A stretch of 64,000 nucleotides of DNA, from positions 4,555 through 68,554 of IMG/VR virus record IMGVR_UViG_3300045988_154140; one strand, given 5' to 3'. The notes beneath the pieces were generated by a model. It was given only the letters and a program-made list of their open reading frames with translations. It was not told the origin of the DNA and did no database searches. The stretch is from a virus. Shown one piece after another: positions 14,450 to 60,384 of the stretch. The translations under genes were made by a program, and so were the position numbers. Position 1 is the first letter of the stretch. Every line of letters starts with the position of its first letter.

Positions 14450-14451
14450 AT

Positions 14452-15063: not shown

Positions 15064-15071
15064 TTTATCAT

Positions 15072-33837: not shown

Positions 33838-34070
33838 TCGTCCTCCTTCTTGTCTGGGTTCTCAATGCCAAGCATCTCACAAGCCTTCTCGCGGATGGCA
33901 AGGAAGTTGCCAAGATAGGGGCTGAACTCGCTGAACTCCCCAGCAATCGCTCTCGATACCGTCATTCGGCTGTAGGGCTTGCCAATCTCGCGTGCCAAGG
34001 CAGTGATGAAGCCGTAGGGCTTCACAGGAATTGCCTGGTAACGCTTTCTCTTAGTCCTCTCTTCTGTCAT
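33834..34070 (-). CDS. First gene of the leftward early operon, Cro-like position (78 aa)
   Basis: Its position is divergent from the XRE repressor; FITALAREIGKPYSRMTVSRAI resembles an HTH. Confidence 0.5.
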   Translation of the reverse strand: MTEERTKRKRYQAIPVKPYGFITALAREIGKPYSRMTVSRAIAGEFSEFSPYLGNFLAIREKACEMLGIENPDKKEDE

Positions 34071-34136
34071 ATCACATCTTCAATTAAGAAGAGCCAGCCG
34101 CGCGTACCAGAGTATTAAATCTAAAAGGTGATACGC

Positions 34137-34144
34137 CAAAACTA
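34137..34144 (-). promoter_or_regulatory. Candidate -7 box TAGTTTTG (TAnnTTTG) of the leftward early promoter
   Basis: The forward strand reads CAAAACTA, 67 nt upstream of ATG 34070. Confidence 0.4.
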
Positions 34145-34180
34145 GTCTATTAACAAGCATTCTTGCACGGCCAGCTCTTC

Positions 34181-34258
34181 TATATTTTTTTCTTATCTTT
34201 TACTATCTTTTATCGTCTTTTCTTATCTTTTATCAACTTTTACTATCTTCTGTATCTC
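34181..34258 (-). repeat. Array A: about seven 10-bp-phased TATCTTTT-type repeats (AAAAGATA on the sense strand of the early operon)
   Basis: TATCTTTT occurs at 34194, 34204 and 34224, with variants at 34214, 34234, 34244 and 34253. Confidence 0.8.
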
Positions 34259-34401
34259 AAAAAGTTGGCTACGCAGGAACACTCATAATAAAAAAAAGCT
34301 ACCAACAATTTAGTTAAATGAAAAATTCACCTGCGCAACCAAACTTTTTTAATACCTTTGTCGAACCAACGATTTATAAAGATGAGAAGTTATAAGAACA
34401 A

Positions 34402-34421
34402 GCACTCGTATATACAAGTGC
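34402..34421 (-). terminator. Hairpin GCACT-N10-AGTGC followed by T-rich tract on the minus strand, directly after the small ORF
   Basis: Read directly; the stop codon of the small ORF is at 34424-34426. Confidence 0.4.
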
Positions 34422-34423
34422 AA

Positions 34424-34603
34424 TTAACTATTCGTACCCGATACGTACAACTCCGAGTTCGTTCCTTCATCTGTCTCAGGAGGATCCTGCTCTTCGTGTA
34501 GTCGGTCACCATATTCATGCGGGAGATTCTGTCCAGCCTTTAGGCGGTCTCCCTCATATCTCCGCGAGATGTTTTGCTCCTCGTGTGGCCTGTTCTCCAT
34601 CAT
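34424..34603 (-). CDS. Small charged 59-aa ORF with internal repeat (MMENRPHEEQNISRRYEGDRLKAGQNLPHEYGDRLHEEQ..), below the ORF-track cutoff
   Basis: My own translation. It is a GC-rich island in AT-rich DNA with its own -7 box (34710-34717) and hairpin (34402-34421). Confidence 0.3.
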   Translation of the reverse strand: MMENRPHEEQNISRRYEGDRLKAGQNLPHEYGDRLHEEQDPPETDEGTNSELYVSGTNS

Positions 34604-34668
34604 ATCTTTTTCCTATCTTTTATTAACTTTTATCCGTTTTTATCATGTTTTACCATCTTTTTCCTTAA
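34601..34668 (-). repeat. Array B: six to seven 10-bp-phased TATCTTTT-type repeats abutting the small-ORF ATG
   Basis: catatctttt tcctatcttt tattaacttt tatccgtttt tatcatgttt taccatcttt. Confidence 0.8.
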
Positions 34669-34673
34669 CTTTG
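34666..34673 (+). promoter_or_regulatory. Candidate -7 box TAACTTTG for the repressor operon
   Basis: Matches TAnnTTTG, 128 nt upstream of ATG 34802. Hairpin GCGGCA-N17-TGCCGC (34682-34710) lies in the leader. Confidence 0.35.
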
Positions 34674-34801
34674 CGGTTGAGGCGGCAGATGTCTGAGCAA
34701 CTGATGCCGCAAAGATAAATACTTTCATAGGAACAATACAAATGTTTTCATGGATTTTACGAGTTAATTAACAAGTTTTAACTTTACGCGTCAATACTTC
34801 T

Positions 34802-35182
34802 ATGACTGGAAAGGAATTAAAGGACAAACTATCTACTTGCGGTATTTCGCAAGCGGAAATCGCAAGGCGATTAGGAATGTCAACTCAAAGTATGTCGCAA
34901 GCGCTTAATGTTGCGGACATAAAAACAGGCTTTCTTGAGAAGATTGCAAACGTTCTTGGTGTGCCTATGTCAAGGTTTTACCCAAACGATGCCGCTACCA
35001 TCACCAACGAGAGTAGCGAGCTACACGTGCGCAACAATAGCGGCGTTGTATCGGGTACAAACAATGGCAGCATCAGCGCAGTGCAGGACGCGCAGAGACT
35101 TGTAGAGATACTGGTCGAGGCAAATGCCAAGAAAGACCAACAGATAGATAAACTGATAGCCTTACTATCTAAACAACAATAA
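34802..35182 (+). CDS. XRE-family HTH repressor (CI-like position)
   Basis: ISQAEIARRLGMSTQSMSQAL HTH; divergent from the early operon; heads the integrase-side operon. Confidence 0.85.
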   Translation: MTGKELKDKLSTCGISQAEIARRLGMSTQSMSQALNVADIKTGFLEKIANVLGVPMSRFYPNDAATITNESSELHVRNNSGVVSGTNNGSISAVQDAQRLVEILVEANAKKDQQIDKLIALLSKQQ

Positions 35183-38085: not shown

Positions 38086-41000
38086 TCAGTGCATCTTGTC
38101 ACCGAAGCGCTCCACGTACTGAAGAACAACACCGTTCAGCGCGTCCAGCTCGTTGAAGTTAGTGACCACAAGTATGCGATACCACTTCGCCGAGAAAGCC
38201 TTGAGCGAGGTGAGCCTATACCAGTTCACACGGTCATTGCTTGCGAAGACTGCCACACGCAGCACGCTCGTTGCACTTGTCTTCTGCGCGAGCGTGCGTA
38301 GGTCATATATCATCTTACGCGCAGTCGGGTCATCCAAGGACAGCGGCCTTGTGAGTGCGTAGCCTATGCTGTGCTCCTCCAGCTGCTTCTGCGTGCTCGT
38401 AACGTCCTCATACCCGTAGAGTGTAGCATCACCACCCTGCATAAGCATGCTTGGGTAGTCAGACACGATGCTTGCAACAGAGAAGGGAAGCGTCTGCATT
38501 GCCCACTCACCCGACTTCACATCCATCACGTAGTGCCACTTCTCACCGTCTATGAACACATGCAGGAGATTACGTGGGTAGTCGTAGGCTATACGTGCTG
38601 TCTGCAACCGCTCCACAAACACCTTCTCATCCTGTACTGAGGGTGCCGTACCGCTGAACTCTGTAGCAATGGACTGCACCGCGGGCTGTATGTCGGGGTT
38701 GCTCTCTGATACGTTGAAGCCGTTAAGTTCGTCTCCCACTGACCGCACGCCCTGCCCGCTCAGCATCTTCAGACCAGATGCCGTGACGAACGCCACAGAG
38801 CCGTCAAGCATGGTGACAGAGGAGACGTTAGTCAACACATCACGGCTTGTCGGGTTCTTGCAGAGATAGCGCCCCGTATCGGCCACCTCAAGTTCCCAGA
38901 TGCCATCTGTGCAGAACGCCTGCACAGCATTACGGCCGTAGGTGTTCTGCGAGAATGCCACAGCCGTTGTGGCAAGCGCGAGGATAGTGCCGTTTCCTAC
39001 GCTTATACGCTGTGTGGTGGGAAACAGCACTGGATTGTCTGTCTCTGACACGTACAACTTGTTTGGCAGATGAAGCGAGTTATCTGCCACGCTTGCCGTT
39101 GCCTCCTCCTCGGTGCAGGACTCGTAGGCAGGGCTATTGTAGTCATTGAACCAATACGCGCCCTCCAGGAACTTGTGGGCAGTAAGAGGCAGCTTGCATT
39201 TGTCATAAACGTAGGATCCGTCTCCAAGCGGTGTGCGCGTATAGACTACCGCCTCACGCGCATCAGCGTCTGGGTAGAAGAGCCATGCTACATCCAAGCC
39301 CGCTATCTCGTCGCCCCAGCCGCTATCCGCATATACAGCCATGCCGTTCTTGACAAGAGACACCACCACGCGCGCAGCGTGAGTCCAGATGTCCGCTTCC
39401 TCATTCCTGCCCCTATCCTCGGCATACCCCGTCATCAGCTCAAGCACAGAACCTCCCCAGACGCGCTCTGTCACATCCGCAAGGTGAAGCTTGGAGTTAT
39501 ACGAGAACAAGACAGACGCGGCCAACTTATTGTGGGAGTGGTTATCGTCCTCAACGCGCTCAAGACTCGGTATGCTGAACAAGTCCTTACCCTCAGTATC
39601 TACGGTTGTCCACCCAGCCTTAATCTCCTCAATGGGGTACTCACCTATAACGTGGAAGTTACTCTGTTCAACTATATTGCTCCTTGTTGTCTTGTCATCG
39701 AAGCGTGGGAGCGCTATCTGCATGAGATACGCACCATCCGACTTAAACTCTCCTGAGCGCGCAAGAAGCCCACCGATGGGCTGCTTGAGATAGCCCGCAT
39801 ATTGCGCCTTGGTGACGTAGAACGAACCTTTGCTGAGGTTGCCATACATATCTTCCCCACCTACGCAATACGTTCCATCCTCTTCCACCGTGTATGTACG
39901 CTTGCTCTCTGCCGTGCTGATGTAGTCCTTGCGCACGATGTTGCCGTTCGCCTCCTTCTTGAAGATGATAATATCACCTGGTTCACTGCTTCCGTGCGTC
40001 AGCACGTCACCTTTGGACAAGTCCAGCATCACGCTGCTGTCATACCATCCACCTGCTGACGGGGCTTCGTTAGACACCTCGTAGGTCATTGCCTGGCCAA
40101 GCGAGGCTATCTTAGATGCCGTAAATGGGTCATCAGTCAGCCCAGAAGCATACTCCCCGTCTATGTAGATGGTATTACTCTCCAACTTGGTCTTGTCCTT
40201 ATCGAACGTATAGCCCTCATTGTAGCGGTAAATGGCAGGAGTGACCGCCACAACGACGGACTGTATCAAGTCCTTCCAGGCGTTGAGGTTCTGCACGTCA
40301 GTATCGGACAGATAGAACTGAAGACGACAGCGGCAACCAAACACATTGCTCGGGTATTCGCCTGCATTGGAGCCTTGTACAAGGAAGTAGGGTGCGCACC
40401 CTGAGTTAGGGGTGAGCAAGGCTGGGCAGGACAGATGGGTTATCGAGCCATCGAAGAGACGCAAGCCTACGCGCGCAAAGAAGGGAAGCACGAACTTGCC
40501 AGCATCCTTCATCGCATCGGAGAGGAACTTGTTAGCCGCTCCCATGATAGCCTGTAGGTTGTCGCTTGTATTGTCGGGCGCAATGCCCGTCTTGCCATCA
40601 ACGCTGTTGGCGTACACCTTCACGTTACAGAAGAAAGTCTCTCCATTGGAATGGCTGGCGTTGCTTCTGTAATAGAGCGCAGAGGTGTTCATTGGTATCT
40701 TTATATCCTTATAAGCGTTCTTACGCAGGACGTACTCATACGCAAACTGCCCGGAAACGTCAAGACGGATATACACGTCATATTTGGAATAGTTGAAGAA
40801 CCGATATGTCTTGCCCCTCTGTAGTGTCTCCTTAGCCGCGAGTGTCTTCTTCTTTCCCTTATAAGACCCGTCCATGCTGTTCCAATAGGCAGGAGCCGCA
40901 GGGTCGCTGATGGTAAAATGCAGCGTGCTGTAGTCGGCGATGGAGCCCGCTGTAACCATCTTCACAATAGTGCTGCCTTGATCAATGTAGAACTCTCCGT

Positions 41001-41775
41001 CCAAAGCCACCTGTGCATCTATCTCGGGTATAGCGCCACCAAGGTTGATATACTTGCCGTCCTTCCACAGCAGATAGCGCACCTCGTCCTCAAACTTTAC
41101 AACAAGCATGTTGCCGAACGGCAGCACCTGTAGAATGCGTGAAGAGTCCGACAGTATCTCCTGCCGCTCCATATCAACCTCGGTGAACCACATCAGAGAG
41201 TAATGGGCTATCCTCGTAGGGGAGCCTGAATAAACATACGGTTCCTGCCTGCTATCTACAACCTCTATGCTCACGGTGTCCCATTTGCTGCCTATGCCTG
41301 CTATCTCTGCGCCAGTAACCACGTGCGAGCGCATGTAGTTCTTAGACCTTACACGCGCCACATTACCCGTCATCGTGACAGGCAACACCTCTTTTGCACC
41401 GTTGTCGAAAGTAAGGGTAAGGGTAAGCTCTCTGCCCTGGAAAGAGTAGTTGCAGTAAAGCTGGAGCAGCCAGAACTGCTGCATCACAACCTTAAACTCA
41501 AAACTCATGTTAGGACGGCGCACACCCCAGTTGTCCATGATGCTTATGTAGTGCTTCTCTGTCTGCACCATGTGTATGCAGGCAAGGCTCTCCTTCTTCT
41601 TGTTGCTCTCAAAGGAGATACCTGTACTCACGGGCTGCGGCAGTCCTGTAAGCTCCTCGCCCCTTGGCCAGAGGTTTACACACTCGCTCAGCTCTCCCTC
41701 CTGTGGTGTAGAGGGGCTTCTGTGCATGCCCTTACCAAAGGGTATGATGCTGCGCTGTAGATTCTTCGTTGCCAT
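38086..41775 (-). CDS. Large virion-associated protein of unknown function (1229 aa)
   Basis: ORF track; 3 nt downstream of the portal gene; beta-rich composition, no motif recognised. Confidence 0.75.
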   Translation of the reverse strand: MATKNLQRSIIPFGKGMHRSPSTPQEGELSECVNLWPRGEELTGLPQPVSTGISFESNKKKESLACIHMVQTEKHYISIMDNWGVRRPNMSFEFKVVMQQFWLLQLYCNYSFQGRELTLTLTFDNGAKEVLPVTMTGNVARVRSKNYMRSHVVTGAEIAGIGSKWDTVSIEVVDSRQEPYVYSGSPTRIAHYSLMWFTEVDMERQEILSDSSRILQVLPFGNMLVVKFEDEVRYLLWKDGKYINLGGAIPEIDAQVALDGEFYIDQGSTIVKMVTAGSIADYSTLHFTISDPAAPAYWNSMDGSYKGKKKTLAAKETLQRGKTYRFFNYSKYDVYIRLDVSGQFAYEYVLRKNAYKDIKIPMNTSALYYRSNASHSNGETFFCNVKVYANSVDGKTGIAPDNTSDNLQAIMGAANKFLSDAMKDAGKFVLPFFARVGLRLFDGSITHLSCPALLTPNSGCAPYFLVQGSNAGEYPSNVFGCRCRLQFYLSDTDVQNLNAWKDLIQSVVVAVTPAIYRYNEGYTFDKDKTKLESNTIYIDGEYASGLTDDPFTASKIASLGQAMTYEVSNEAPSAGGWYDSSVMLDLSKGDVLTHGSSEPGDIIIFKKEANGNIVRKDYISTAESKRTYTVEEDGTYCVGGEDMYGNLSKGSFYVTKAQYAGYLKQPIGGLLARSGEFKSDGAYLMQIALPRFDDKTTRSNIVEQSNFHVIGEYPIEEIKAGWTTVDTEGKDLFSIPSLERVEDDNHSHNKLAASVLFSYNSKLHLADVTERVWGGSVLELMTGYAEDRGRNEEADIWTHAARVVVSLVKNGMAVYADSGWGDEIAGLDVAWLFYPDADAREAVVYTRTPLGDGSYVYDKCKLPLTAHKFLEGAYWFNDYNSPAYESCTEEEATASVADNSLHLPNKLYVSETDNPVLFPTTQRISVGNGTILALATTAVAFSQNTYGRNAVQAFCTDGIWELEVADTGRYLCKNPTSRDVLTNVSSVTMLDGSVAFVTASGLKMLSGQGVRSVGDELNGFNVSESNPDIQPAVQSIATEFSGTAPSVQDEKVFVERLQTARIAYDYPRNLLHVFIDGEKWHYVMDVKSGEWAMQTLPFSVASIVSDYPSMLMQGGDATLYGYEDVTSTQKQLEEHSIGYALTRPLSLDDPTARKMIYDLRTLAQKTSATSVLRVAVFASNDRVNWYRLTSLKAFSAKWYRILVVTNFNELDALNGVVLQYVERFGDKMH

Positions 41776-41778
41776 TAC

Positions 41779-43680
41779 TTACTCCTGTGTTTGTGGTTGT
41801 GTCTCCTGTTGGCTTCTCTGCTGCATTGCGGCCATCGCCTGCTCAAGCTGCTTCCTCACCGTACTGCTTGCGGGGAGATAACTCATCTGAAGCATCTGCG
41901 CGGCATCCACCGCTCCTGCCTGCCACATCTGCGAAACAAGGTCGTTCATCGCCATGCGGAACACTGGGTTCTCAGGTGACATGAGGATACGCACACCGAA
42001 CTTCACATCCTGCACCTCCACTGGGTCATACTTGGTGACCTCGCTCATGCCGTTGGAGCGCATCACACTTATGTTCCCCTCTCGGTAGTACTGATGTATG
42101 ACCTGCATCTTCTTCTCTGCCACTTGCTGCTCAAACGAGCCGAACTTCAGCAGGAGTGCGCTCACGCTCGTAGTGCTGTTCTGCGACTCCAGCGCGTAGC
42201 GGCTTGCCGATGTCCCGCTCTTGGCAGTCTTACCTTGCAGCGCCTCGCTCACACTCGTTATGTCGGGGATGAAGCCAAGCTGCAACTGGAGCATATCGGT
42301 GATACCCGTCATGTTGGTGTTGCTAACCACCACCTCGGGCTTGTTCATACTGCGGCCTTCCTTGTCATCGTAGAATATGAAGTTGCCCGTCTCGCGTATG
42401 CTTCGCGCAAACTCTGCCTCGGTCATGTTGCTAGGCACGCAAGACTTCGGTATCATGGTTATGCCCTTCGCGCTTGCCTGTATGACAATATCGAACAGCG
42501 TCACCAGTCTGTTGATGTAACGCTGCTGGTCAATGACAGGACTCATGTAGGGTATCACATCACCGTTGACATACTCATATATCTTGAACGTGTAGGGGTA
42601 CGAACCGTGCTCGTAGGGGCTGTCGTACTCCTCCAGTATAAGGCCACCTGGGGCGAGCGCCTGGTAGTGCCAGTATGTGTCAAAGACGGGCGTGTACTCG
42701 ATAAGAGGCACGTCCTCGCGTGCCATGCCAGCGGCCTCTGCCTGTGCAAGCCTTGCCTCGTTCTCTGCTGTAACGAGAGGCAGCTGCTCTGGTTCTATGC
42801 GGTAGAGCGGCTGGTCAAAGTCCATGATGTCCTTGCATCTGTACCTCAGCTTATGCTCCTTAGTCCAGACATGATACACCCTGCACATATCCCTATCCGA
42901 TACATCCCAGTACGGATCCTTCAGCTTGTCTGTCTGCTGTCCGTTGGGGAGGATAGACTGCTGACGCGCTATATAGGGTGCGTAGATGTACTCCAGCTGC
43001 TTGTAGTCATACTTGCTGCGCGCGAATCTTGCTGCCAACGCTCCAAGGCTGTAGTCCTCGAAGTGGCCTATGAGCTCCACATCCCTGTGCAGCGGGTCTA
43101 TGCCCGCACTCTCGAAGTAGAAGTGGCTCGGCTCGATGACGAACGTGTAGGCATCCTCAACACCGTTGATGGTTGTCCACTCCTCCATGACCACAGACAT
43201 ACCTCCATACAGCATCTCCTCCATCTCACTCACGAGTATGTCGGGCATCATGTTGTTCTGCCAGTTGGCTTGCAGGGCGTTCGTCATCACGTCAGCCTTC
43301 TCATCGCAGTTAGGACTACGTGCAAAGCACACAGGCTCGGTGCTCTGCTTGCTGTAGAGTCCGCTCAAGGAGTGAACTATCTTGATGAGGTGGTTGTTCT
43401 GCAAGGCTACACCGCCTGTACGCTTGGCTATACGCGAGCTCTCGCGCACCAGTTTGCCCTTCTCGTCATACACCCAGTCGCTCCACTGGTCGATGAAGCA
43501 GTAGTTGATATTGCGCTCTCTACGCTTACGCAAGTCATACAGAGCCTGCCACGCATTCTCTGCGCGCGTAAGCAGTTGTAGGTTGGTCTTGTCTGCGCCC
43601 TTCTGCCGCAAGCGCGCCTTAACGCTGTCACTGTTGTCCTTCTTACCGCGGAAACGGGACACGGGTATGAGTCTCTTCAT
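41779..43680 (-). CDS. Probable portal protein (633 aa)
   Basis: Size, position at the head of a late operon, and Q-rich C-terminal tail. This is general resemblance only; no diagnostic motif. Confidence 0.55.
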   Translation of the reverse strand: MKRLIPVSRFRGKKDNSDSVKARLRQKGADKTNLQLLTRAENAWQALYDLRKRRERNINYCFIDQWSDWVYDEKGKLVRESSRIAKRTGGVALQNNHLIKIVHSLSGLYSKQSTEPVCFARSPNCDEKADVMTNALQANWQNNMMPDILVSEMEEMLYGGMSVVMEEWTTINGVEDAYTFVIEPSHFYFESAGIDPLHRDVELIGHFEDYSLGALAARFARSKYDYKQLEYIYAPYIARQQSILPNGQQTDKLKDPYWDVSDRDMCRVYHVWTKEHKLRYRCKDIMDFDQPLYRIEPEQLPLVTAENEARLAQAEAAGMAREDVPLIEYTPVFDTYWHYQALAPGGLILEEYDSPYEHGSYPYTFKIYEYVNGDVIPYMSPVIDQQRYINRLVTLFDIVIQASAKGITMIPKSCVPSNMTEAEFARSIRETGNFIFYDDKEGRSMNKPEVVVSNTNMTGITDMLQLQLGFIPDITSVSEALQGKTAKSGTSASRYALESQNSTTSVSALLLKFGSFEQQVAEKKMQVIHQYYREGNISVMRSNGMSEVTKYDPVEVQDVKFGVRILMSPENPVFRMAMNDLVSQMWQAGAVDAAQMLQMSYLPASSTVRKQLEQAMAAMQQRSQQETQPQTQE

Positions 43681-43730
43681 GCTATCTTATATATGTACAA
43701 GCGCAAAGATAGACTGCCGTGTAACTCGTT

Positions 43731-43747
43731 TTTGATAATTTGTCATT
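43731..43747. promoter_or_regulatory. 17-bp palindrome-type site TTTGATAATTTGTCATT shared by two divergent late promoters
   Basis: It lies 19 bp from -7 box TATCTTTG (minus, 43704-43711) and 19 bp from TACCTTTG (plus, 43767-43774). Confidence 0.6.
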
Positions 43748-43793
43748 TTGGGCGCGTAACTGAGGCTACCTTTGCCCTTGTACATAAGACGCA

Positions 43794-44195
43794 ATGATGG
43801 ATATAGAATTTGACAGCATGTTTACAAGATGCCAGGAGTTGTCTTCCTTCGAGGGGAGAAGGCTTACTGACGGGCAGGGCAACAGCATGTACGAGCAAGC
43901 GCACATCACTGACCAAGACAAACCCCTCATACAGGGCATGGTGCGCAAAGCAGTTGAGATGGCAAACAGCCGCCTCAGCAGCTCAGTGGGTGAGATAGGC
44001 TTCAGCCTTACACCCTCACAGCAAGTACAGACTGGTGCGCTGAAGCTGCTTGAAGAGATAGTCGCCGCATACGTCATGTACCTGTGGCTGGAGGACAAGT
44101 CCAAGGAACGCAGCGACTGCTATCTGGCTATGACAGAACAGATGGTGTCGGCATTCCGTTCGCGTGTCCGACCGACACTCATGGATGATTACTGA
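43794..44195 (+). CDS. Small helical protein, paralogue 1 of 4 (133 aa)
   Basis: C-terminal pattern LLEEIVAAYVMYLWLEDKS.. is shared with the next three genes. Confidence 0.65.
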   Translation: MMDIEFDSMFTRCQELSSFEGRRLTDGQGNSMYEQAHITDQDKPLIQGMVRKAVEMANSRLSSSVGEIGFSLTPSQQVQTGALKLLEEIVAAYVMYLWLEDKSKERSDCYLAMTEQMVSAFRSRVRPTLMDDY

Positions 44196-44208
44196 TATAT
44201 AAGTACGC

Positions 44209-44694
44209 ATGGATATAACGATTTACAGAAACCAGCTCAAGTTAGATGCCGACATCGAAACAAGAAAGGCGGGCATGTTCCAAATCAACAAAGACCGCCC
44301 CGAAGAACTCAACGAGGCTCAGATGGGTATGGAGGAGAGCGACCTTAGCTATTTCGAGCGTCAGTGCCAGCAGGGAGTTGATGACCTTCTCACCGTGCTG
44401 CACCGCTTCGTGACTGGATGCACAGGAGAGACGCCTATGGGGGAAGCGGGTAACAACAAGCTGGAGAACACAAAGCAGTGGGTCATATCGCTCTCGTTCG
44501 ACTCAAGGCGCAACGTCATCGCGCGTGCGCTGGCTGGAGCATGCCACCGCTTCGTGCTTATGACAGCGCTGCACGCATGGGCTGTAATGACTATGCCTGC
44601 AATGGCAGAGCAATATCTTGCACGCAGGAATGATGCTGCCGCTGCCATTAGGGAAATGATATACCGCAAGGAACCACCAACACTGCAAGAATGA
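44209..44694 (+). CDS. Small helical protein, paralogue 2 of 4 (161 aa)
   Basis: ALAGACHRFVLMTALHAWAVMTMP.. pattern. Confidence 0.65.
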   Translation: MDITIYRNQLKLDADIETRKAGMFQINKDRPEELNEAQMGMEESDLSYFERQCQQGVDDLLTVLHRFVTGCTGETPMGEAGNNKLENTKQWVISLSFDSRRNVIARALAGACHRFVLMTALHAWAVMTMPAMAEQYLARRNDAAAAIREMIYRKEPPTLQE

Positions 44695-45197
44695 TTATAG
44701 AACTGCTGTATAAATACCTCGACCATGATGCTAGGCAGCTTACCACGCGCTACGCGGAAGCAAGGACTAACGACCCAGAGCTGAGAGACCTGTCACAACT
44801 GGGGGACGGAACAAGCGACCAACAGCTTATAAGGAGGCTCATCGTCACTGGTGTTGGCAAGCTCCGTGCTGTTCTCAGGAACAAACTGGTAAACAGCACC
44901 GAGAATGCCGATGACAAGCTGCCCGTAGTCACCTCCTGGGAGTTCAACTTCAAGGAGGCCGATGCTGACAGTCGGGCGCTTGCTGAACTCATGCACTGGT
45001 TCATCGTGAGAGCGGCCATCGTGGAGTGGTGCAGGATGTTCTCACCAAGCGACCTGTCAGAGGTGAAGTCGGCGGTAGAGGATGCAGCAGACGAGCTGGA
45101 CGAGTTGCTGTCTAGCTCGGGCATGCCTACGAAGGAGAGACGCACGCTCATAAGCGAGGACGGCCCCGCTGAAGTCAAATTCACATACATACCATAA
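44691..45197 (+). CDS. Small helical protein, paralogue 3 of 4 (168 aa)
   Basis: ALAELMHWFIVRAAIVEWCRMFSP.. pattern; 4-nt overlap with the upstream gene. Confidence 0.65.
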   Translation: MIIELLYKYLDHDARQLTTRYAEARTNDPELRDLSQLGDGTSDQQLIRRLIVTGVGKLRAVLRNKLVNSTENADDKLPVVTSWEFNFKEADADSRALAELMHWFIVRAAIVEWCRMFSPSDLSEVKSAVEDAADELDELLSSSGMPTKERRTLISEDGPAEVKFTYIP

Positions 45198-45694
45198 TGG
45201 ACGCATCGGTTAAGCTTCTCCTCAGTGAGATAAAATATGAAGTGAAGTTCGACTCCTGGTTGAAGAACAGGGTGACGAATGCAGAGCAACGCAATGCCAA
45301 CAAGAAGGCGTACAAGTCTGTCGAGTATGCCTTCAAGGACGACAAGGCAGAGGACTGGCTTGTGCGTCAGATACAGGATGCCGTGGATAGCGTGTACGGA
45401 CGGCTTCGCTGGTGCCTACATGATGACAGCCGTATGCAGTCAGATGAGATATGGAAGAACCCTACAGAGTGGTCGCTGCACTTCCGCTTCTCTGAGATGT
45501 GGCGGGGCAGTGTACGCTCACTGAAAGCGCATATACACCGCTATGTATGCGACTACGTTATATCGCAGTGGTATCGTGCCATGAATGACGAGCGCGCGCA
45601 ACAAAACTATACTATATCCGCAGAAAACCACCTTGCGAAGGCTTACAATGAAGCGCGCTCTGAGGTGGTTCGGATTGAACCCTGGAGGTTATGA
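45197..45694 (+). CDS. Small helical protein, paralogue 4 of 4 (165 aa)
   Basis: SLKAHIHRYVCDYVISQWYRAMND.. pattern; 1-nt overlap upstream, 4-nt overlap downstream. Confidence 0.65.
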   Translation: MDASVKLLLSEIKYEVKFDSWLKNRVTNAEQRNANKKAYKSVEYAFKDDKAEDWLVRQIQDAVDSVYGRLRWCLHDDSRMQSDEIWKNPTEWSLHFRFSEMWRGSVRSLKAHIHRYVCDYVISQWYRAMNDERAQQNYTISAENHLAKAYNEARSEVVRIEPWRL

Positions 45695-45996
45695 GCAAGA
45701 AGACAGCGGACAAAAGCACAAAGACTTCAGTAGTCAAGGAGAAGATACGCGACTATCTGGACAAGAACTGGGAGAAGCTTATCAAGGATATAGATTCCCT
45801 CGACCCGAAGGAGCGTGTAGATAGACGCATGAAACTCTTGGAGTATGTCATGCCGAAAGCCGCCGCTGCAAAGACAGAGGAGAAGGCACCGCAGTCAATA
45901 GCACAGATAATACTCAGCAAGGAAGCCCAATTCGATGACTACGTGGAAGAGGAAGACTTGCAGGAGAAAGAAATAATAAGGGATGAAGACTTGTAG
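45691..45996 (+). CDS. Lys/Glu-rich 101-aa protein
   Basis: ORF track; last gene of the plus-strand cassette. Confidence 0.55.
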   Translation: MSKKTADKSTKTSVVKEKIRDYLDKNWEKLIKDIDSLDPKERVDRRMKLLEYVMPKAAAAKTEEKAPQSIAQIILSKEAQFDDYVEEEDLQEKEIIRDEDL

Positions 45997-48718: not shown

Positions 48719-49123
48719 TTAGCCAAGAAAGTTCTTCTTGTCTTTTGGCTTGAACAATTTTGAGTGCCTTGCCAGCTGCAAAATCTCATTCACATGCTCC
48801 TCTTTCATTAAGGCTTTGAAGATAGTTTGCCCTTTCTCCATATCGCTCTCTATCTTGCTTATGGGTATCTTCAGCAATTCCTGAGCAGCAAGAAAAGAGT
48901 CATACCGTAGGAAGCCATAATCTGCCTTTCGCATAGGGTACTGCATCGCAAGCATTTCTTCCTTTCCTTGGATCCACTTGTTGATTCCTGAATTGATGAA
49001 GAAGAAACCCGCTACCTCACCATGAGAAACACCCATTATGACAAAGAACTTTCCGTGGTCAACGAAGTCAAAAGTCTCAGAGTGAAGTATCGCTCCCCTC
49101 TTTATCAAGTCTCTATTTGCCAT
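48719..49123 (-). CDS. Unknown 134-aa protein, candidate toxin partner of the Panacea-domain protein
   Basis: The ATG overlaps the upstream TGA by 1 nt (TGATG). It starts MANRDLIKRGAILHSETFDF.. Confidence 0.6.
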   Translation of the reverse strand: MANRDLIKRGAILHSETFDFVDHGKFFVIMGVSHGEVAGFFFINSGINKWIQGKEEMLAMQYPMRKADYGFLRYDSFLAAQELLKIPISKIESDMEKGQTIFKALMKEEHVNEILQLARHSKLFKPKDKKNFLG

Positions 49124-49677
49124 CAGTAGCCACAAAGTACTTCCTCGTACTTCAGTTTTTGGGATATATAATTGGCATACTCCTCTGTGTCCCCAGCCTC
49201 GCAGAGTATATCCTTAACCGAAATTTCCCTGTCTGGTCGGGTGTTATTATAGGCCAGACCATGAGACATTTCTGTAAGTTCTATAAAACTTTTATCGCGG
49301 CATTTCGCAATAGCATTATCAAGGCATTCCTTATCGGAATCGGAGAGGCTGTCTGGGTCGTAGTCAGCCGCAGCACAGATAATAAACCTATTTGCAAAAT
49401 GGAATAACTCCTTCAATTCGTTTGCATTTTCTGACTGAGAGAAATAGCTATCACCCTTTACAGCCTTTGTAATATCATATATCATAGACGGCACGGGGCC
49501 ATACTGCATAGCAATGTAAGTGTCACCTGTTATTGAACGGCCATACTTACTCAGATGCTCCTGGTCTGCAAAATAGAGAGTCTTGTAAACCTTGTGCATG
49601 TCGGCCTGTCCTCCAAACGCAGAAAGGATATAGAGGATAGCATTAACAGATGCGTCCTTGTCAAACAGGTTATTCAT
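49123..49677 (-). CDS. Panacea (DUF4065 / SocA-like) antitoxin-domain protein
   Basis: VNAILYILSAFGGQADMHKVYKTLYFADQEHLSKYGRSITGDTYIAMQYGPVP. An own -7 box TAACTTTG lies at 49703-49710 (forward strand reads CAAAGTTA). Confidence 0.75.
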   Translation of the reverse strand: MNNLFDKDASVNAILYILSAFGGQADMHKVYKTLYFADQEHLSKYGRSITGDTYIAMQYGPVPSMIYDITKAVKGDSYFSQSENANELKELFHFANRFIICAAADYDPDSLSDSDKECLDNAIAKCRDKSFIELTEMSHGLAYNNTRPDREISVKDILCEAGDTEEYANYISQKLKYEEVLCGY

Positions 49678-49779
49678 ATTACTTACATTTCGGTTTCGCC
49701 TGCAAAGTTATGAATAAATACTCAGTTGTAGCACCAAATGTGGCTACAAGTTTTACGTATGACTCGTAAAAAGAGCTTT

Positions 49780-50121
49780 TTATACCCCGCTTGGCTCAAA
49801 ATTCCTGCACAGAAGCACGGCTTCTGCCTCTGCTATCCTATAGGCTCTTGAGGTTCTGTGGTACTGATAACCGAGTTCCTGCAAGTGCCGTATGGCCTGC
49901 GGGGTACGGCCTAAGAGCTGTGCGGCTGTGGTCACGCTATACCCCGCACCAGATATTTCGCCTACCAGTATGCAGCGCGCCATAAGCACGTTCTCTGCCC
50001 TACTCTTGCCAAGCACATCCTCCGCCGTGAGGTTCACGTGACCCTCCGCATCTATCTGTGTGGCGCAACAGCTAACCACACTATCTACTATTCTGTACAA
50101 CTCTGTCTCCTTGTCGTTCAT
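49780..50121 (-). CDS. DnaA domain-IV-like HTH protein (113 aa from MNDKETEL)
   Basis: KSRAENVLMARCILVGEISGAGYSVTTAAQLLGRTPQAIRH resembles the DnaA C-terminal HTH. The internal ATG was chosen because the long ORF overlaps the upstream gene. Confidence 0.5.
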   Translation of the reverse strand: MNDKETELYRIVDSVVSCCATQIDAEGHVNLTAEDVLGKSRAENVLMARCILVGEISGAGYSVTTAAQLLGRTPQAIRHLQELGYQYHRTSRAYRIAEAEAVLLCRNFEPSGV

Positions 50122-50134
50122 GGTATTTGTTGTA

Positions 50135-50707
50135 TTATAAGAAGTCCACAAACGTGAACCTCTCTTCGTTGAACTTATGCGGCCTCTTATAGAGCCTGTC
50201 CCACAGCCAGGGGATAGGAAGATAGGTATGCCAGCTTCTACCGTCAAGCGGCAAGAAGCCCTGCACACCTCCACTGTAGCCTACCTCTGCGGGCAGAACA
50301 GACACGTAATCCACCTTAACGCTGGCATACTTGGCATACTTACAGCAGGCGCTTCCCCATATTATCCACTGAAACCAATGCCGTAAGTTGGTTGCGAACT
50401 GACGGAAGTCTTCTATGTTCTCACTCGTCCCCTCGTAGGTCAGGCATACCTGGCATCTGTCGGGGAAACGGTCTATCATGCCAAGAATGTCATCTGCGCT
50501 CCGCTCGCTCTCCCACAGCCCATGCGCGCATACGTAGCCCTTGCGTCTCCCACGCGCAGGCCGCACACGTATGTCGAAACTCCTGCACCCAGCGGCATAC
50601 TGCTCCGCTATGGTCTTGCTCTGTGTCTTCGCAAAAGGCGTGACCAGCCAAGAGAGGAGACCATGCCCTCTCTCGCCAGTCGCGCTGTCATGTGTCGCTA
50701 TCTTCAT
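50135..50707 (-). CDS. PI-PLC X-domain-like phosphodiesterase (190 aa)
   Basis: IATHDSATG, GCRSFDIRV and CAHG match the two catalytic-His and Arg/Asp segments of PLC-like phosphodiesterases. Confidence 0.6.
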   Translation of the reverse strand: MKIATHDSATGERGHGLLSWLVTPFAKTQSKTIAEQYAAGCRSFDIRVRPARGRRKGYVCAHGLWESERSADDILGMIDRFPDRCQVCLTYEGTSENIEDFRQFATNLRHWFQWIIWGSACCKYAKYASVKVDYVSVLPAEVGYSGGVQGFLPLDGRSWHTYLPIPWLWDRLYKRPHKFNEERFTFVDFL

Positions 50708-50716
50708 TATTATCTA

Positions 50717-50743
50717 TATATATATTAAAGGGGCGACAGCCCC
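50717..50743 (-). terminator. Hairpin GGGGC-TGTC-GCCCC followed by TTTAATATATATA (minus strand) after the antitoxin gene
   Basis: Read directly. Confidence 0.55.
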
Positions 50744-50800
50744 ATTCGTTCATTGCCGTGGAACTGCCGCCCCTTCAGTAGGGCATTGGCTTCGGTTTGC

Positions 50801-51067
50801 CTATATCTTACCGACTACATCCTCGTCCAGTGCTGACGATATTAGCGCGAGCGTTGACAAGGTGAAATTGTGTGTACCACCAAGCCAGCGGGAAACCTCC
50901 GCGCGGGAGCGCCCCATAAGCCTGGCCAGGTCGGCCTGGTTCATTCCCCTCCGCTCCAGAATCACCGCGAGCCTGTCAGATATGGCCATGGACATCTCCA
51001 CCTGCCTGCGTGTGCTGTCTGGTACAGAGGCAAGAGCCTGTGCAAAGAATGGTTCTGAATGTGTCAT
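50801..51067 (-). CDS. XRE-family HTH antitoxin (HigA-like)
   Basis: MNQADLARLMGRSRAEVSRWLGG; 4-nt ATGA overlap with the upstream gene. Confidence 0.8.
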   Translation of the reverse strand: MTHSEPFFAQALASVPDSTRRQVEMSMAISDRLAVILERRGMNQADLARLMGRSRAEVSRWLGGTHNFTLSTLALISSALDEDVVGKI

Positions 51068-51537
51068 AGGCTAAAATCTTTTGTCTCAATTCCTTTTACC
51101 GAGCGTTCCTCTATGATGACTTCACCCTTTCTTATGGCCAGCCTTAATGCGTCATCAAGTTTTTGAAGGGTGAGTACGTAACCGTTTAGTTCATCACAAT
51201 CTTCGTATCGTCTTACCGACTTCACGCCTCCGTTGCCCGCTATTAGAACGCTGTCGCTCAAACGAAGGCAATAAAGCCGAAGCCTTCCAGACTCTATGGG
51301 CAGGGCGCACACATTGTCTCTGAATTTTCCTTCAGGTCGGAAATACCGTTCAAGAAAACCACCCGCGTTCATCATGTGCTGTATGGCAGTCAATATTACT
51401 CCCAGGTCTTTACTATAGTCATCCCTGTGCTCCTCAATGAACTTTTGGAATTCAGTGAAGCTATCACCCTCAAAGCATATTGAGAATAACCCCGCGCGCT
51501 CCGTTTGAGCTACCGATTGTATTTTAACGTTTGGCAT
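51064..51537 (-). CDS. Gp49/HigB/RelE-superfamily-like toxin candidate with N-terminal extension (157 aa)
   Basis: GRLRLYCLRLSDSVLIAGNGGVK resembles the Gp49-like core; the toxin-first gene order is HigBA-like. Confidence 0.5.
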   Translation of the reverse strand: MPNVKIQSVAQTERAGLFSICFEGDSFTEFQKFIEEHRDDYSKDLGVILTAIQHMMNAGGFLERYFRPEGKFRDNVCALPIESGRLRLYCLRLSDSVLIAGNGGVKSVRRYEDCDELNGYVLTLQKLDDALRLAIRKGEVIIEERSVKGIETKDFSL

Positions 51538-54337: not shown

Positions 54338-55234
54338 TTATGCCATACTACTATTCTCCAGCGCCGAAAGTCTATTCTTTATGCTCTCCAGCATATCTAC
54401 GGTAGCAATCTCCTTAGTACCGACCTTAGCCTTATAGCCAGGGCCAGGCAAAAGCACAATATCGTCGAGTCCGCTCTTCACCACCACTTTATAGCCCTCG
54501 AGTTGGAGACATTTGCCGCTTCCCTCGGCATACACGCGAATGCTGTCGGCATGTATCTCGACAGAACCGTCTCCCTCCGTATAATAGCGGAGAGAGGTTC
54601 GTTTCTTCTCAGCCGCCTGCCGCGCATTCTCGTTCTGCTGTCTTACAATCTCTGAGCTGACACGCTTGCCCTCTGCGGACGAGCGGGATGCCTCTGCTGT
54701 CTGCCTCAGGGTCTCTGCGCTCTCAATCTCACTGATACGCTCGTTAAGCTCGGTGATGTTGGACACCCACTCGCTCTGACGCAGTGCGGTCTGCCCGCTT
54801 ATAACGGCTATCTCGTATGCGGACAAGCCATCATACCCATACGTAGCCACCATGCTGCGCACTTCGATATTGACAGCGCTTGACTCTGAGTAGTCGGCCT
54901 CGTTAGACACAGCAGTGATGCCAAACAGATCATCAACCTGTGAACGGCTCATCCTGCCAAGAGGCGGCAAGCTGGCATCGTTTCCTCCCTCAAAGGGATT
55001 GCAGGCCGACTTGAACCACACGGCAAGCAGGCCATACACTCCTTCTGGTAACCCAGTAGGAAGCGTTGTCGTTATGACGTTCTCACTCAGCGTATAGTTG
55101 AGTGGTATCTGCTCGTTGTTACTCGTCAGGAACACAAACAGAGACGAACGCCTAAAATCCTCCTTGACCTTAGACGCGCCTCTGCTTATTGTCCATGACA
55201 GATTTATTCTCTGATTACTGCCTACATACTTCAT
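54338..55234 (-). CDS. Tail-fibre-like protein (298 aa)
   Basis: YGYDGLSAYEIAVISGQTALRQSEWVSNI motif, common in phage fibre proteins, followed by a coiled coil. Confidence 0.6.
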   Translation of the reverse strand: MKYVGSNQRINLSWTISRGASKVKEDFRRSSLFVFLTSNNEQIPLNYTLSENVITTTLPTGLPEGVYGLLAVWFKSACNPFEGGNDASLPPLGRMSRSQVDDLFGITAVSNEADYSESSAVNIEVRSMVATYGYDGLSAYEIAVISGQTALRQSEWVSNITELNERISEIESAETLRQTAEASRSSAEGKRVSSEIVRQQNENARQAAEKKRTSLRYYTEGDGSVEIHADSIRVYAEGSGKCLQLEGYKVVVKSGLDDIVLLPGPGYKAKVGTKEIATVDMLESIKNRLSALENSSMA

Positions 55235-55280
55235 ATCGTAATGTTATATGCCGCAAAGTTAATCCGCACAGCCATAAGGG

Positions 55281-55297
55281 TTTGACGAATTATCAAA
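55281..55297 (-). promoter_or_regulatory. 17-bp palindrome TTTGATAATTCGTCAAA (minus-strand reading), 19 bp upstream of -7 box TAACTTTG (55254-55261)
   Basis: Identical 18-mer to 60298-60315; upstream of the fibre operon ATG 55234. Confidence 0.6.
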
Positions 55298-55676
55298 TCT
55301 TCCTTCGCAAGACGAGCACAACAGCCGCGCCTGCCACAAGCATCGCCCAGCCGCCCCAGTCTTGCTTGGTACGCTGCCACCGCGTAAGCGTGCGCTCCAC
55401 GGGGTAGGGCTTGGGGATGCTGTCGGTCTTGTTGATATAGAGGGTGTCGCATGTCTTATGCCGTTCCACACGCACATGCCATCTGTCCATCCACACCGTA
55501 TCACGCCCCTCACGCACGTGTACGCTGTCATACATCCACACGCTATCCACACGCTCCTTGTATTGTATAAGCGTGTCTGAGCGTGTCTGCATGATGGGAA
55601 CATACTCTGTGCGTACAGAGCGGCAGGAACACAGACAGAGAGCGCAGAGGAGCGCTATCAGACAGCCCCTGCCCAT
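55293..55676 (-). CDS. Unimolecular-spanin-like protein (N-terminal lipoprotein signal plus C-terminal TM)
   Basis: MGRGCLIALLCALCLCSC.. and C-terminal WAMLVAGAAVVLVLRRKI; directly after the lysozyme gene. Confidence 0.55.
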   Translation of the reverse strand: MGRGCLIALLCALCLCSCRSVRTEYVPIMQTRSDTLIQYKERVDSVWMYDSVHVREGRDTVWMDRWHVRVERHKTCDTLYINKTDSIPKPYPVERTLTRWQRTKQDWGGWAMLVAGAAVVLVLRRKI

Positions 55677-56095
55677 CGTGCAGCCTCCCATGCTCTGCGT
55701 CTCACAAGGCCAGGCAGCTTCTTGTTGCCCGCCTTCACCCATCTTCCGAACTCATGGTAAATGGTTGGATTAGCAGGATTGGCAAGTATCTTCTTGGCCA
55801 TCGTGCTGCGCTTGAAATTACCGATGCCCACGTTATAGGCAAAGCTTACTATGGCATCCCACTGGTTATCGGTCAGTTTCACGTCTCCCAAGAACCTGCC
55901 CAATGCCTCCTCCTCAAGTTCGATGAACTCCTCAAGGTCTTTGTCAGCCTGCTCTTGCGTGATGGTCATACCCATCTCCACCCCGCGAGTCCTCCCGTAG
56001 CCTATGGTTGGAATACCCACGGCATCGCGGTATGCCTTAAGCTTGCAACCCTCAAAGGTCTTCATCTTCTCAAGTGCTTCTCTTGTAAACCTCAT
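55658..56095 (-). CDS. GH24 (T4-type) lysozyme / endolysin
   Basis: FEGCKLKAYRDAVGIPTIGYGRT, then NQWDAIVSFAYNVG. Confidence 0.9.
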   Translation of the reverse strand: MRFTREALEKMKTFEGCKLKAYRDAVGIPTIGYGRTRGVEMGMTITQEQADKDLEEFIELEEEALGRFLGDVKLTDNQWDAIVSFAYNVGIGNFKRSTMAKKILANPANPTIYHEFGRWVKAGNKKLPGLVRRRAWEAARWAGAV

Positions 56096-59472: not shown

Positions 59473-60243
59473 CTAATACTCGTCCTCGTCTCCTGCAAGG
59501 AACATGTTGCGCGAACGCTTCTGCTTAGGCTCGGGGCGCTTGATGGGGGACTGCTTGCCCGACACACGCTCCTGACTTGCCTCAAGGCTGCGCAGCTTGT
59601 CATCCACCTTCTTGCTAAGCCCTGCGGCCATACCCTCCTCATGAGCCTGGTCAACGTCCTTGTCGTGGGTCATACCCTTGGCAACCATCGCGAAATACTC
59701 GGGGTCAAGGATGCCATGCACCATGTCGTCCATGCCCTGGTACATCTTACCCACTATCTCCTGCGTCTGCTCCTCGCTCAGGCCAAGCTCCTCGGACTTC
59801 TTGCGGATAGCCTCGATGCTCTTGGGCATGTTCTCGGCCATCGCGTCATCAATCTTCTTGTTCTCGGCCTCACGCTCCAGATACTTGGAGTGAGCCTGTG
59901 CCAACTTGTCCGCATACTCGGGGTCGTCCTGAAGAGCCTTGAGGTCAAGGCCGCGCTGCTCGGTGAGGTAGATGATAGGGTCGAAGTCGTCCTGCTTGCC
60001 TGCCGCTATCACCATATCGCGGAATGCGGGGCTGGCCTTCATGCGGTCAGTAAGCTGCTTGCTGTTCTTCTCGTAACCCTCGTACTCATCGAATGCCTTG
60101 CCCATCTGGTCGTAGTAGGCATCCTCATCGTCCAGGTTCAAGTCGGGGTAACGCTTGCTCATGCGCCCACGGAACAAGTCGCGCTTGCTCTCCTTCGCGG
60201 GTTCAGCGGCAGTAGCCGCCTGTGGTGCTGTTGCTTGTGCCAT
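59473..60243 (-). CDS. Probable scaffolding protein (256 aa, acidic, helical)
   Basis: Charged helical composition, directly upstream of the capsid gene. Confidence 0.5.
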   Translation of the reverse strand: MAQATAPQAATAAEPAKESKRDLFRGRMSKRYPDLNLDDEDAYYDQMGKAFDEYEGYEKNSKQLTDRMKASPAFRDMVIAAGKQDDFDPIIYLTEQRGLDLKALQDDPEYADKLAQAHSKYLEREAENKKIDDAMAENMPKSIEAIRKKSEELGLSEEQTQEIVGKMYQGMDDMVHGILDPEYFAMVAKGMTHDKDVDQAHEEGMAAGLSKKVDDKLRSLEASQERVSGKQSPIKRPEPKQKRSRNMFLAGDEDEY

Positions 60244-60298
60244 ATATGTCTCTCGTGAATTTTATTCATCGCAAAAGTAGGAAGCGCGGCAACTAAAG

Positions 60299-60315
60299 TT
60301 TGACGAATTATCAAA
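60299..60315 (-). promoter_or_regulatory. 17-bp palindrome TTTGATAATTCGTCAAA (minus-strand reading), 19 bp upstream of -7 box TACTTTTG (60272-60279)
   Basis: Upstream of the scaffold/capsid operon ATG 60243. Confidence 0.6.
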
Positions 60316-60384
60316 ATCGCTATTGTGTGACCAATTTACAGAACGTCCTTTGTGCAATACAAACACCGAAAACTATTATTACAC

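Follow-up and report, generated by a model that had tools for sequence, protein, structure and literature searches.

A 17-bp, A/T-rich element stands in front of five operons of virion genes in a 64,000-nt stretch of viral DNA (IMG/VR record IMGVR_UViG_3300045988_154140, positions 4,555 to 68,554; hereafter the window), each time separated by exactly 19 bp from a Bacteroidota-type -7 box, TAnnTTTG. Judging from comparison with related phages, we consider it probable (at roughly 0.6) that these elements are late virion-gene promoter sites bound by an activator which the phage itself encodes. Part of the pattern had been noticed earlier, in a reading of the letters alone (the sequence-only reading), and all coordinates and sequences given there were re-read directly. 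The observation was confirmed, but it had been understated. Both exact minus-strand copies of TTTGATAATTCGTCAAA (sites B and C), the 18-mer TTTGATAATTCGTCAAAC common to them, and a third copy with a box at 19 bp on either side (site A, three mismatches to TTTGATAATTCGTCAAA) are present where they had been placed. To these three sites with their four promoters, all of them real, a fourth (site D) was added by listing every TAnnTTTG box of the window with its upstream sequence, so that the total is four sites and five promoters (Table 1).

Sequence of the element and its spacing to the -7 box

Matches to the 17-mer with at most three mismatches were found three times in the window, against 0.08 expected, and none of 100 shuffles gave three. 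The bare skeleton TTTGA-N7-TCAAA, which the sequence-only reading had put forward as the motif, is not rare (1.7 expected at no more than one mismatch in the window), and the signal therefore lies in the whole 17-mer together with its fixed spacing to the box. The arms of that motif are indeed present; the core proved to be wider, GAYAA-W-TnGTC plus flanks. As for the spacing, a box of the form T[AT]nnTT[TC]G is expected at a fixed offset with a frequency of about 9e-4 and is present in five of the eight site-orientations, for which the binomial chance is about 3e-14 by a hand estimate.

Twenty distinct sites from the window and its relatives (described below) give the clade consensus nnTGAYAAWWnGTCAAr, with an information content of 18.7 bits, and a weight matrix built from them matches only sites A to D within the window. 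Positions G4, A5, Y6, A7 and A8 and positions G12, T13, C14, A15 and A16 are near-invariant; taken as a whole, the arm next to the promoter hardly varies, and the distal one is looser. The bases that touch the 19-bp spacer are CAAA, CAAG or CATT at every site. The element is a pseudo-dyad, which can equally be read as a direct repeat of GWCAA with an 8-bp period. A role at the RNA level is unlikely, given that the hairpins do not exceed those of shuffled sequences in stability (z = -0.2, -1.4, 0.0 and -0.1), and the reading of the palindrome as an RNA hairpin or terminator was rejected.

Promoters of Bacteroidota follow the consensus -7 TAnnTTTG and -33 TTTG (PMC7366714, PMC2483708). At the five promoters described here, no TTTG or TTG was found about 19 bp upstream of the -7 box. 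The statement of the sequence-only reading that the -33 TTTG is missing holds within 19 +/- 2 bp, the sole nearby TTTG being located at spacer 16 of site A(+). Since the -33 motif is frequently undetectable in Bacteroidota promoters (PMC7366714), its absence is weak evidence by itself.

Operons downstream of the five boxes

Each of the five boxes is located 19-28 nt 5' of the first start codon of a virion module. This content is supported for all five downstream units, including the portal, four-paralogue, fibre and scaffold/capsid units which had been assigned from the letters alone. Homologues of the paralogue cassette are located in the late region of the cultured Bacteroides phage BS-TP4, and in a related locus (L074) a fibre-like protein of 1446 aa begins with the conserved N-terminus of the 298-aa protein. 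At the promoters of lysogeny, early and accessory genes in the window, the element is absent. The promoters of the CI/Cro-like genes and of a toxin-antitoxin island (SocA/Panacea; Xre pair) do have -7 boxes; since the sequences upstream of these are unrelated, the element separates the virion operons from the remaining genes.

Table 1. Elements, -7 boxes and operons of the window, and the candidate specificity factor
Feature	Position (strand)	Sequence or content	Remarks
Site A	43731-43747	TTTGATAATTTGTCATT	17-bp pseudo-palindrome common to two divergent promoters
Site B	55281-55297 (-)	TTTGATAATTCGTCAAA	exact; overlaps TGA stop of upstream gene 55293-55742
Site C	60299-60315 (-)	TTTGATAATTCGTCAAA	exact
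Site D	15056-15072 (-)	GATGATAAATTGTCAAG	directly after SNF2 helicase gene
-7 box, portal operon	43704-43711 (-)	TATCTTTG	19 bp from site A; 23 nt before portal ATG (43680)
-7 box, paralogue cassette	43767-43774 (+)	TACCTTTG	19 bp from site A; 19 nt before ATG 43794
-7 box, fibre-like operon	55254-55261 (-)	TAACTTTG	19 bp from site B
-7 box, scaffold/capsid/head operon	60272-60279 (-)	TACTTTTG	19 bp from site C
-7 box, gp14-like/giant internal-virion-protein operon	15029-15036 (-)	TATCTTTG	19 bp from site D
Portal operon	38086-43680 (-)	P22-like portal 41779-43680; 1229-aa structural protein	site A(-)
Paralogue cassette	43794-45996 (+)	four paralogues; 101-aa gene	site A(+)
Fibre-like operon	(-)	298-aa gene 54338-55234; downstream genes to 52302	site B
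Scaffold/capsid operon	(-)	scaffold 59473-60243; major capsid 57763-59427; head genes	site C
gp14-like operon	1-15000 (-)	T7-gp14-like 182-aa gene 14452-15000; 382-aa gene 13301-14449; giant open reading frame (ORF)	site D
Giant ORF	13331 down to 1 (-)	DarB-like polyvalent protein, at least 4443 codons	exits window
142-aa protein	60385-60813 (+)	two tandem three-helix helix-turn-helix (HTH)-like repeats	divergent from site C

Relatives of the giant ORF are polyvalent proteins of 5299-5553 aa with ddrB-ParB, AAA_34, Helicase_C_4, methyltransferase and LPD domains; one of them, in a cultured relative, is annotated as 'DarB-like antirestriction'. Antisense to the giant ORF are two boxes identical to that of the paralogue cassette (TACCTTTG; 2301-2308 and 7742-7749, plus strand). 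Both have CTTTTT(T)CGTCA about 29 nt upstream, and at one of them a -33 TTTG is present as well, at spacer 19. The pair may represent antisense promoters, or else the echo of a protein motif that is repeated.

Conservation among close relatives

Relatives, numbered here as L loci, were collected by searches with the portal, capsid and 142-aa proteins. The 20 distinct sites derive from the window and from L050, L053, L054, L055, L063, L070/L074, L077, L096, L097 and L098. Unconserved spacing or sequence in related phages, which the sequence-only reading had named as speaking against its proposal, was looked for; the distance between element and -7 box turned out to be 19 bp at all 20 sites, in relatives of 68-91% capsid identity. 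The sequences of the 19-bp spacers are unrelated among sites, and the gene order is shuffled among relatives.

The element precedes the scaffold, fibre-like, gp14-like and portal genes of these relatives. Upstream of the portal gene of L050 (79% portal identity), TTTGACAAAATGTCAAG and then TTACTTTG are found, 19 bp apart. Orthologues of site B are found ahead of the 298-aa homologue in L053 and L074, those of site C ahead of the scaffold gene in nine loci (L053, L054, L055, L063, L070, L077, L096, L097 and L098), and those of site D ahead of the 182-aa homologue in L063, L096 and L097. The element also moves with its module: in L063 it stands before a gp14-like gene located after the head genes, and in L074 it is found between the giant gene and the fibre gene. 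Such a pattern is what would be expected for a functional promoter element.

When viral contigs were scanned with the bare 17-mer, mostly unrelated single matches were obtained. A scan for motif and box together was more specific and gave 23 stretches of IMG/VR, about half of which were relatives, while the others looked like chance or coding matches. Seven loci were rejected as chance matches: L069, L075, L080 and L083 represent a conserved coding stretch, L076 and L086 sigma-70-type tRNA promoters, and L073 a CI/Cro operator of an unrelated phage that uses Shine-Dalgarno sequences. A scan of a genome collection gave one prophage only, in a Parabacteroides metagenome-assembled genome (MAG).

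A 17-bp pseudo-palindrome overlapping the expected position of sigma region 4 might also be an operator, at which a phage repressor occludes the -33 region and silences the virion genes in the lysogen. The phage is temperate, with an integrase and a CI-like HTH protein, and dispersed operators are known from other temperate phages, namely the C1 operators of P1, the CIRs of phiC31 and the stoperators of mycobacteriophage L5. However, position weight matrix and consensus scans found no element in the CI/Cro-like switch region (34070-34802), which contains 10-bp tandem repeats instead; an operator of the switch repressor is unlikely because the immunity region has no copy. Furthermore, a repressor would not need spacing exact to a single base across lineages and element types, and the Xre protein encoded at 50801-51067 has its own, different promoter palindrome. 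We regard repression as quite unlikely. As individual binders, the CI-like (34802-35182) and Cro-like proteins were rejected, as their intergenic region has no copy of the element. The Xre protein was rejected as well, on account of its own palindrome and because the toxin-antitoxin-like island encoding it is absent from near-identical genomes which keep the late promoters.

The 10-bp repeats, which are unrelated to the late element, form two arrays of about six units each (34190-34250 and 34602-34665; core TATCTTTT), on either side of a small region located between the Cro-like gene and the CI-like gene. Operators, iterons and phased bends are possible interpretations.

Lineage-specific elements in more distant relatives

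Further out in the family, the element stays in place but its sequence is replaced by others. L100 carries TGTGCCAATTTGGCGCA and TGTGCCAATTTGGTTTT, and L101 carries AATGCCAATTTGGAAAT. This class, GCCAATTTGGC, forms a clean palindrome, GCCAA-T-TTGGC, with its centre on the same base as in the clade of the window, from which it differs by a symmetric change at positions 5 and 13, A:T to C:G. In L101 the palindrome is bidirectional: it lies 19 bp from the scaffold box and, on the other strand, 19 bp from the box of the operon that contains the 142-aa gene and the terminase. The element of L102 is xGTGyyAAATAGCCAAA, and elements of the ...CACAAA / ...GCAA type are present in L066, L067 and the Parabacteroides prophage L090. 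Before the fibre-like gene of L090 (12760-12860), two runs of 7-nt tandem repeats, of CAATTAA and TTCTCAA types, are found in place of the element. The cultured phages BS-TP4 and BKO1-TP3 share a non-palindromic GTAAAWAGWTAAAC, located at four promoters in each, 19 bp from TAnnTT(T/C)G. Three of these precede the portal, the scaffold gene and a DUF4376-led operon in both phages; the fourth is found before the gp14-like/giant operon in BS-TP4 and before the structural genes gp32-34 in BKO1-TP3.

Wherever at least two sites were seen in a lineage or genome, they had one element in common, while elements differ between lineages. This concerted change within genomes argues that the specificity factor is encoded by the phage, and we take it as the strongest argument to that effect.

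Two further explanations were weighed. As for the first, the element could be a -35-like sequence read by a specialised holoenzyme, i.e. polymerase with a phage subunit that resembles or remodels sigma, in the style of T4 MotA/AsiA or as a small factor similar to sigma region 4; it would then not be an operator in its own right. In favour of this, the spacing is invariant in 20 sites and in every lineage, a rigidity that promoter elements typically show, conservation is much stronger in the proximal than in the distal arm, and the BS-TP4-type element is not a dyad; reportedly, 19 bp is also the optimal -33/-7 spacer in Flavobacterium. On the other hand, the distal arm is conserved too and changes symmetrically with the proximal arm in L100/L101, and two elements (site A and that of L101) work in both orientations, which a directional -35-like element could not do unless palindromic. 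Moreover, no Sigma70_r2 and no convincing r4 domain was found in the phage proteins scanned against Pfam. A holoenzyme of this kind is, in our view, unlikely.

As for the second, the sites could belong to a transcription factor of the host, for example a dimeric Crp/Fnr-type regulator, given that the TTGA...TCAA half-sites are similar to an FNR box (TTGAT/GTCAA against TTGAT-N4-ATCAA), that a centre at about -42 fits class II sites of Crp/Fnr, and that lineage-specific elements could mirror different host families. Yet the arms are spaced by N7 (TTGA-N7-TCAA) rather than by N6 as in Crp/Fnr boxes, and motif plus box are essentially confined in IMG/VR to this phage family. Also, one element is common to BS-TP4 and BKO1-TP3 although their hosts are different species of Bacteroides, and it is completely unlike that of the clade of the window. 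We regard a host factor as very unlikely.

A candidate specificity factor

Scans of essentially all phage proteins against Pfam and PHROG identified several HTH proteins and no known late regulator. Among three proteins which the sequence-only reading had suggested as possible binders, the 142-aa protein (Table 1) is the one conserved family-wide. Its gene is the first in an operon with a rhomboid-like gene and the large terminase gene (TerL) and always adjoins the scaffold promoter. In a sensitive comparison with BS-TP4, BKO1-TP3 and a third cultured phage, BF1-TP2, no other small non-structural protein was detectably shared. There are 38 clusters of homologues, none of them annotated. The AlphaFold model is all-helical, with two helix-helix-turn-helix units (predicted local distance difference test, pLDDT, 74; predicted template modelling score, pTM, 0.51). 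When compared by profile, the two halves matched each other with an hhalign probability of 93.9% (E 1.5e-7), so that the protein is a three-helix module duplicated internally. Among its most conserved segments within the clade is the helix that ends repeat 2 (SYAKRIIWKMRK; AKRIIW segment), which differs in lineages with other elements; the putative recognition helices likewise differ between element classes. In L100/L101, Gly/Tyr is replaced by Arg in both repeats where both arms of the element gain a G:C pair, which is suggestive. We tentatively propose the 142-aa protein as the most likely late specificity factor, though at clearly less than even odds; it could instead be the small terminase.

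The rhomboid-like gene (60759-61232, plus strand) encodes a membrane protein with a GxSG motif and a weak match to Pfam Rhomboid. Its arrangement between the 142-aa gene and the large terminase gene is kept as far as BS-TP4 (gp8), BKO1-TP3 (gp50) and BF1-TP2 (gp59), an odd partner in a packaging operon.

The distance from the late element to the box of this operon is 27-29 bp in the clade of the window and 18-19 bp in L100/L101. With such variable spacing, the late element may or may not also drive the terminase operon, from one helical turn further away. Between the two, at 60327-60334 (plus strand), GTGACCAA is kept in the window, L053, L054, L055 and L062 (as GTGACCAC in L053), exactly 10 nt 5' of the xxxxTT(T/C)G box of the operon, while the interval between it and the late element differs by 9-11 nt. 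Probably, this is a promoter element in its own right; its 7-mer GTGACCA is not enriched in the window.

The two other suggested proteins fared less well. The product of 49780-50121, which has a weak DnaA-C-like HTH, was dropped as a binder, because its gene lies inside the late operon in near-identical genomes. The basic 156-aa protein encoded at 16614-17084 may still be the binder, but no homologue was detected in the cultured relatives (BS-TP4, BKO1-TP3 and BF1-TP2), among them those that share this promoter architecture; the partial loci of closer relatives do not reach its region. It matches no family and no PDB entry, nor is it similar to the BS-TP4 protein at the same position. Beside it, where the early operon has its distal end, neighbouring genes (17071-17486, minus strand) encode two paralogous zinc-ribbon proteins of 67 and 71 aa (CxxC...CxxC). 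No support was obtained for these as Ogr-like activators, and they are kept as regulator candidates of second rank.

Proposed model of late promoter activation

According to the model we propose, the host primary sigma factor would read the -7 element TAnnTTTG kept at each promoter, and the 17-bp pseudo-palindrome, abutting the invariant 19-bp spacer, would replace the -33 element. With the box set at -14 to -7, which presumes the position of the start, the spacer would extend from -33 to -15 and the element from -50 to -34, with its centre at -42. The proximal arm would then lie where sigma region 4 would meet the -33 element, and no TTG is found there. After the early programme, a phage-encoded, sequence-specific factor would bind, either as a homodimer or as a monomer with two HTH repeats, and would recruit or stabilise the host RNA polymerase by direct contact, in a class II manner. 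Five transcription units (portal/1229-aa, paralogue cassette, fibre-like, scaffold/capsid/head and gp14-like/giant) would be switched on together, with the single element of site A serving two divergent promoters.

The geometry is that of class II activation, i.e. a site at fixed distance which abuts the upstream core position, centred at -42 if the box ends at -7. From this geometry and from the lineage-specific co-variation we infer positive control and a phage-encoded factor; the transcription starts, the late timing and the identity of the factor are likewise predictions. The sequence-only reading had spoken of a late-regulon operator of a dimeric phage activator. Conservation supports the regulon, while the word "dimeric" goes too far, since a direct-repeat reading of the element is possible too, and a monomer carrying two HTH motifs would fit equally well.

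Several observations weigh against a phage activator, or against the 142-aa protein in this role. The -33 element is weakly conserved across Bacteroidota, so that its absence is no proof of activator dependence (PMC7366714). The lineage-specific elements may follow different hosts instead of different phage factors, and since the element of the BS-TP4 lineage is not palindromic, binding of a dimer to a dyad may not hold family-wide. The gene of the 142-aa protein is located two genes upstream of TerL, a position at which one would expect a small terminase. The protein has no match in Pfam, PDB, BFVD or the PHROG families of known function: its only PHROG match is a family of unknown function, and Foldseek comparison of the moderate-confidence model with PDB and BFVD gave E values above 0.3. 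Finally, residue-level covariation between protein and element was rejected as an argument, being confounded by phylogeny and contradicted by L097 and L102, which have Arg in repeat 2 despite different proximal arms.

In its widest form, the model with a phage activator would extend to a whole family of temperate Bacteroidales phages, including BS-TP4, BKO1-TP3 and a very abundant uncultured gut phage. These would use an undescribed class of small activators (about 140 aa, two tandem HTH repeats, no known relatives) that replace recognition of the -33 element by sigma-AB, rigidly placed 19 bp from the -7 box, with an orthogonal pair of element and activator in each lineage. Such a generalisation is conceivable, but we consider it doubtful.

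Comparison with known activators

Among phages, the geometry is closest to that of Mor and C of phage Mu. Mor binds as a dimer to a 16-bp dyad whose centre is at -43.5, and late promoters dependent on C have a -10 and no -35 element (PMC4390567, PMC2582627). In both cases, several late promoters of a temperate phage keep the downstream core element without the upstream one, and a dyad of about 16-17 bp is situated immediately upstream, centred near -42 to -43.5. In both, a small phage protein would activate the host polymerase, the candidate here being about 140 aa long with a C-terminal HTH-like helix. In contrast to Mu, the host belongs to another phylum with the sigma-AB -7/-33 grammar, the sequence of the element is unrelated, the candidate is internally duplicated into two repeats, and one element serves two divergent promoters. 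No match to Mor/C (Pfam PF08765) was found among the scanned phage proteins, and the profile of the 142-aa protein aligned with Mor and C at hhalign probabilities of 6.5% and 0.4%, in HTH segments only, which is not significant.

RinA, ArpU and LtrC are activators of Gram-positive phages needed for packaging, morphogenesis and lysis genes (PMC3152322, PMC3753634). Their genes adjoin the terminase genes, as does that of the 142-aa candidate. However, they act at one late operon promoter upstream of terS, whereas five dispersed promoters are present here; the hosts differ as well, and there is neither sequence similarity nor a Pfam match to these families.

Class II sites of CRP/FNR also have two arms, centred about 41.5-42 bp upstream of the start and overlapping -35/-33, with TTGA/TCAA-like half-sites. 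Their inverted arms of 5 bp are separated by N6 (CRP) or N4 (FNR, TTGAT-N4-ATCAA), in contrast to N7 in the present element, which in addition changes with the phage lineage. The phage encodes no protein of the Crp family, the sole trace being an HTH_Crp_2 match of 0.0021 inside the CI-like protein.

Activators of the MarA/SoxS type (AraC family) are monomers with two HTH motifs. If the 142-aa protein is the factor, it would, like them, have two HTH-like modules in one polypeptide and recognise an asymmetric site, about 17-20 bp long, that overlaps the upstream element of the promoter. It differs from them in that no AraC-family Pfam match was found, its repeats are a family-specific duplication, and its DNA binding is putative.

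The phage, its host and its abundance

The window represents most of a temperate phage of roughly 65-72 kb with a GC content of 52%. Its structural genes encode a P22-like portal, a large terminase, an SU10-like capsid protein and a scaffold-like protein, and its lysogeny genes a tyrosine integrase of Bacteroidota type and the CI-like HTH protein. A long minus-strand replication operon comprises PolA, a VapE-like primase-helicase, an Enc34-type single-stranded DNA-binding protein, a DUF2800 nuclease, the SNF2 helicase, PAPS reductase and a C5 methylase. In an integrated copy (L103, 15613-21902), host genes come after the integrase, namely those for a lytic transglycosylase (SLT), uridine kinase (udk), HisG and HisD. 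Identical counterparts of the product of this udk are present in MAGs labelled Bacteroidaceae or Prevotellaceae bacterium. One distant relative is the prophage of a Parabacteroides MAG (L090), and the closest cultured relatives, found by tblastn with the capsid protein, are the Bacteroides phages BS-TP4, BKO1-TP3 and BF1-TP2 (PMC12694917); megablast of two window segments against GenBank phages gave no match. The integrase type, the flanking host genes and the cultured Bacteroides relatives place the host in Bacteroidales, and the -7/-33 grammar therefore applies. We take it to be a temperate, podovirus-like phage of uncultured Bacteroidales. Public gut metagenomes yielded more than 1000 clusters of portal-related proteins (E <= 1e-20); among those listed, the best 120 share at least 98% identity with the portal of the window.

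The accessory island at 48719-51537 (minus strand) contains a gene of SocA/Panacea antitoxin type (49123-49677) and a pair composed of a 157-aa gene and the Xre-HTH gene (51064-51537 and 50801-51067), each unit having its own -7 box and its own palindrome. As the island is absent from the near-identical genomes L103-L105, it is a variable insertion. An early 235-aa protein (24957-25664, minus strand) contains a Tad2-like (Thoeris anti-defence 2) domain (Pfam E = 1.3e-18).

Implications

In the literature searched, no description of late promoters or activators of temperate Bacteroidales phages was found, and the paper on the cultured relatives (PMC12694917) does not mention promoters; late-gene timing in these phages thus appears to be undescribed. 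Late promoters that depend on phage activators are already known. What would be new here are the sigma-AB grammar and the elements specific to each lineage. The finding defines a candidate late regulon of five promoters together with its grammar (17-bp element, 19-bp spacer and -7 box), and traces the evolution of the element across a phage family very common in public gut metagenomes. A direct test becomes possible in cultured systems, namely BS-TP4 in B. salyersiae and BKO1-TP3 in B. koreensis, and would reveal how activators work with the unusual sigma-AB polymerase of Bacteroidota. Pairs of element and factor would be useful for predicting prophage induction programmes from sequence and, if the model is true, the lineage-specific pairs would be orthogonal inducible promoters for Bacteroides engineering. 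Likewise, if true, this would be the first defined late-gene switch in phages of Bacteroidota.

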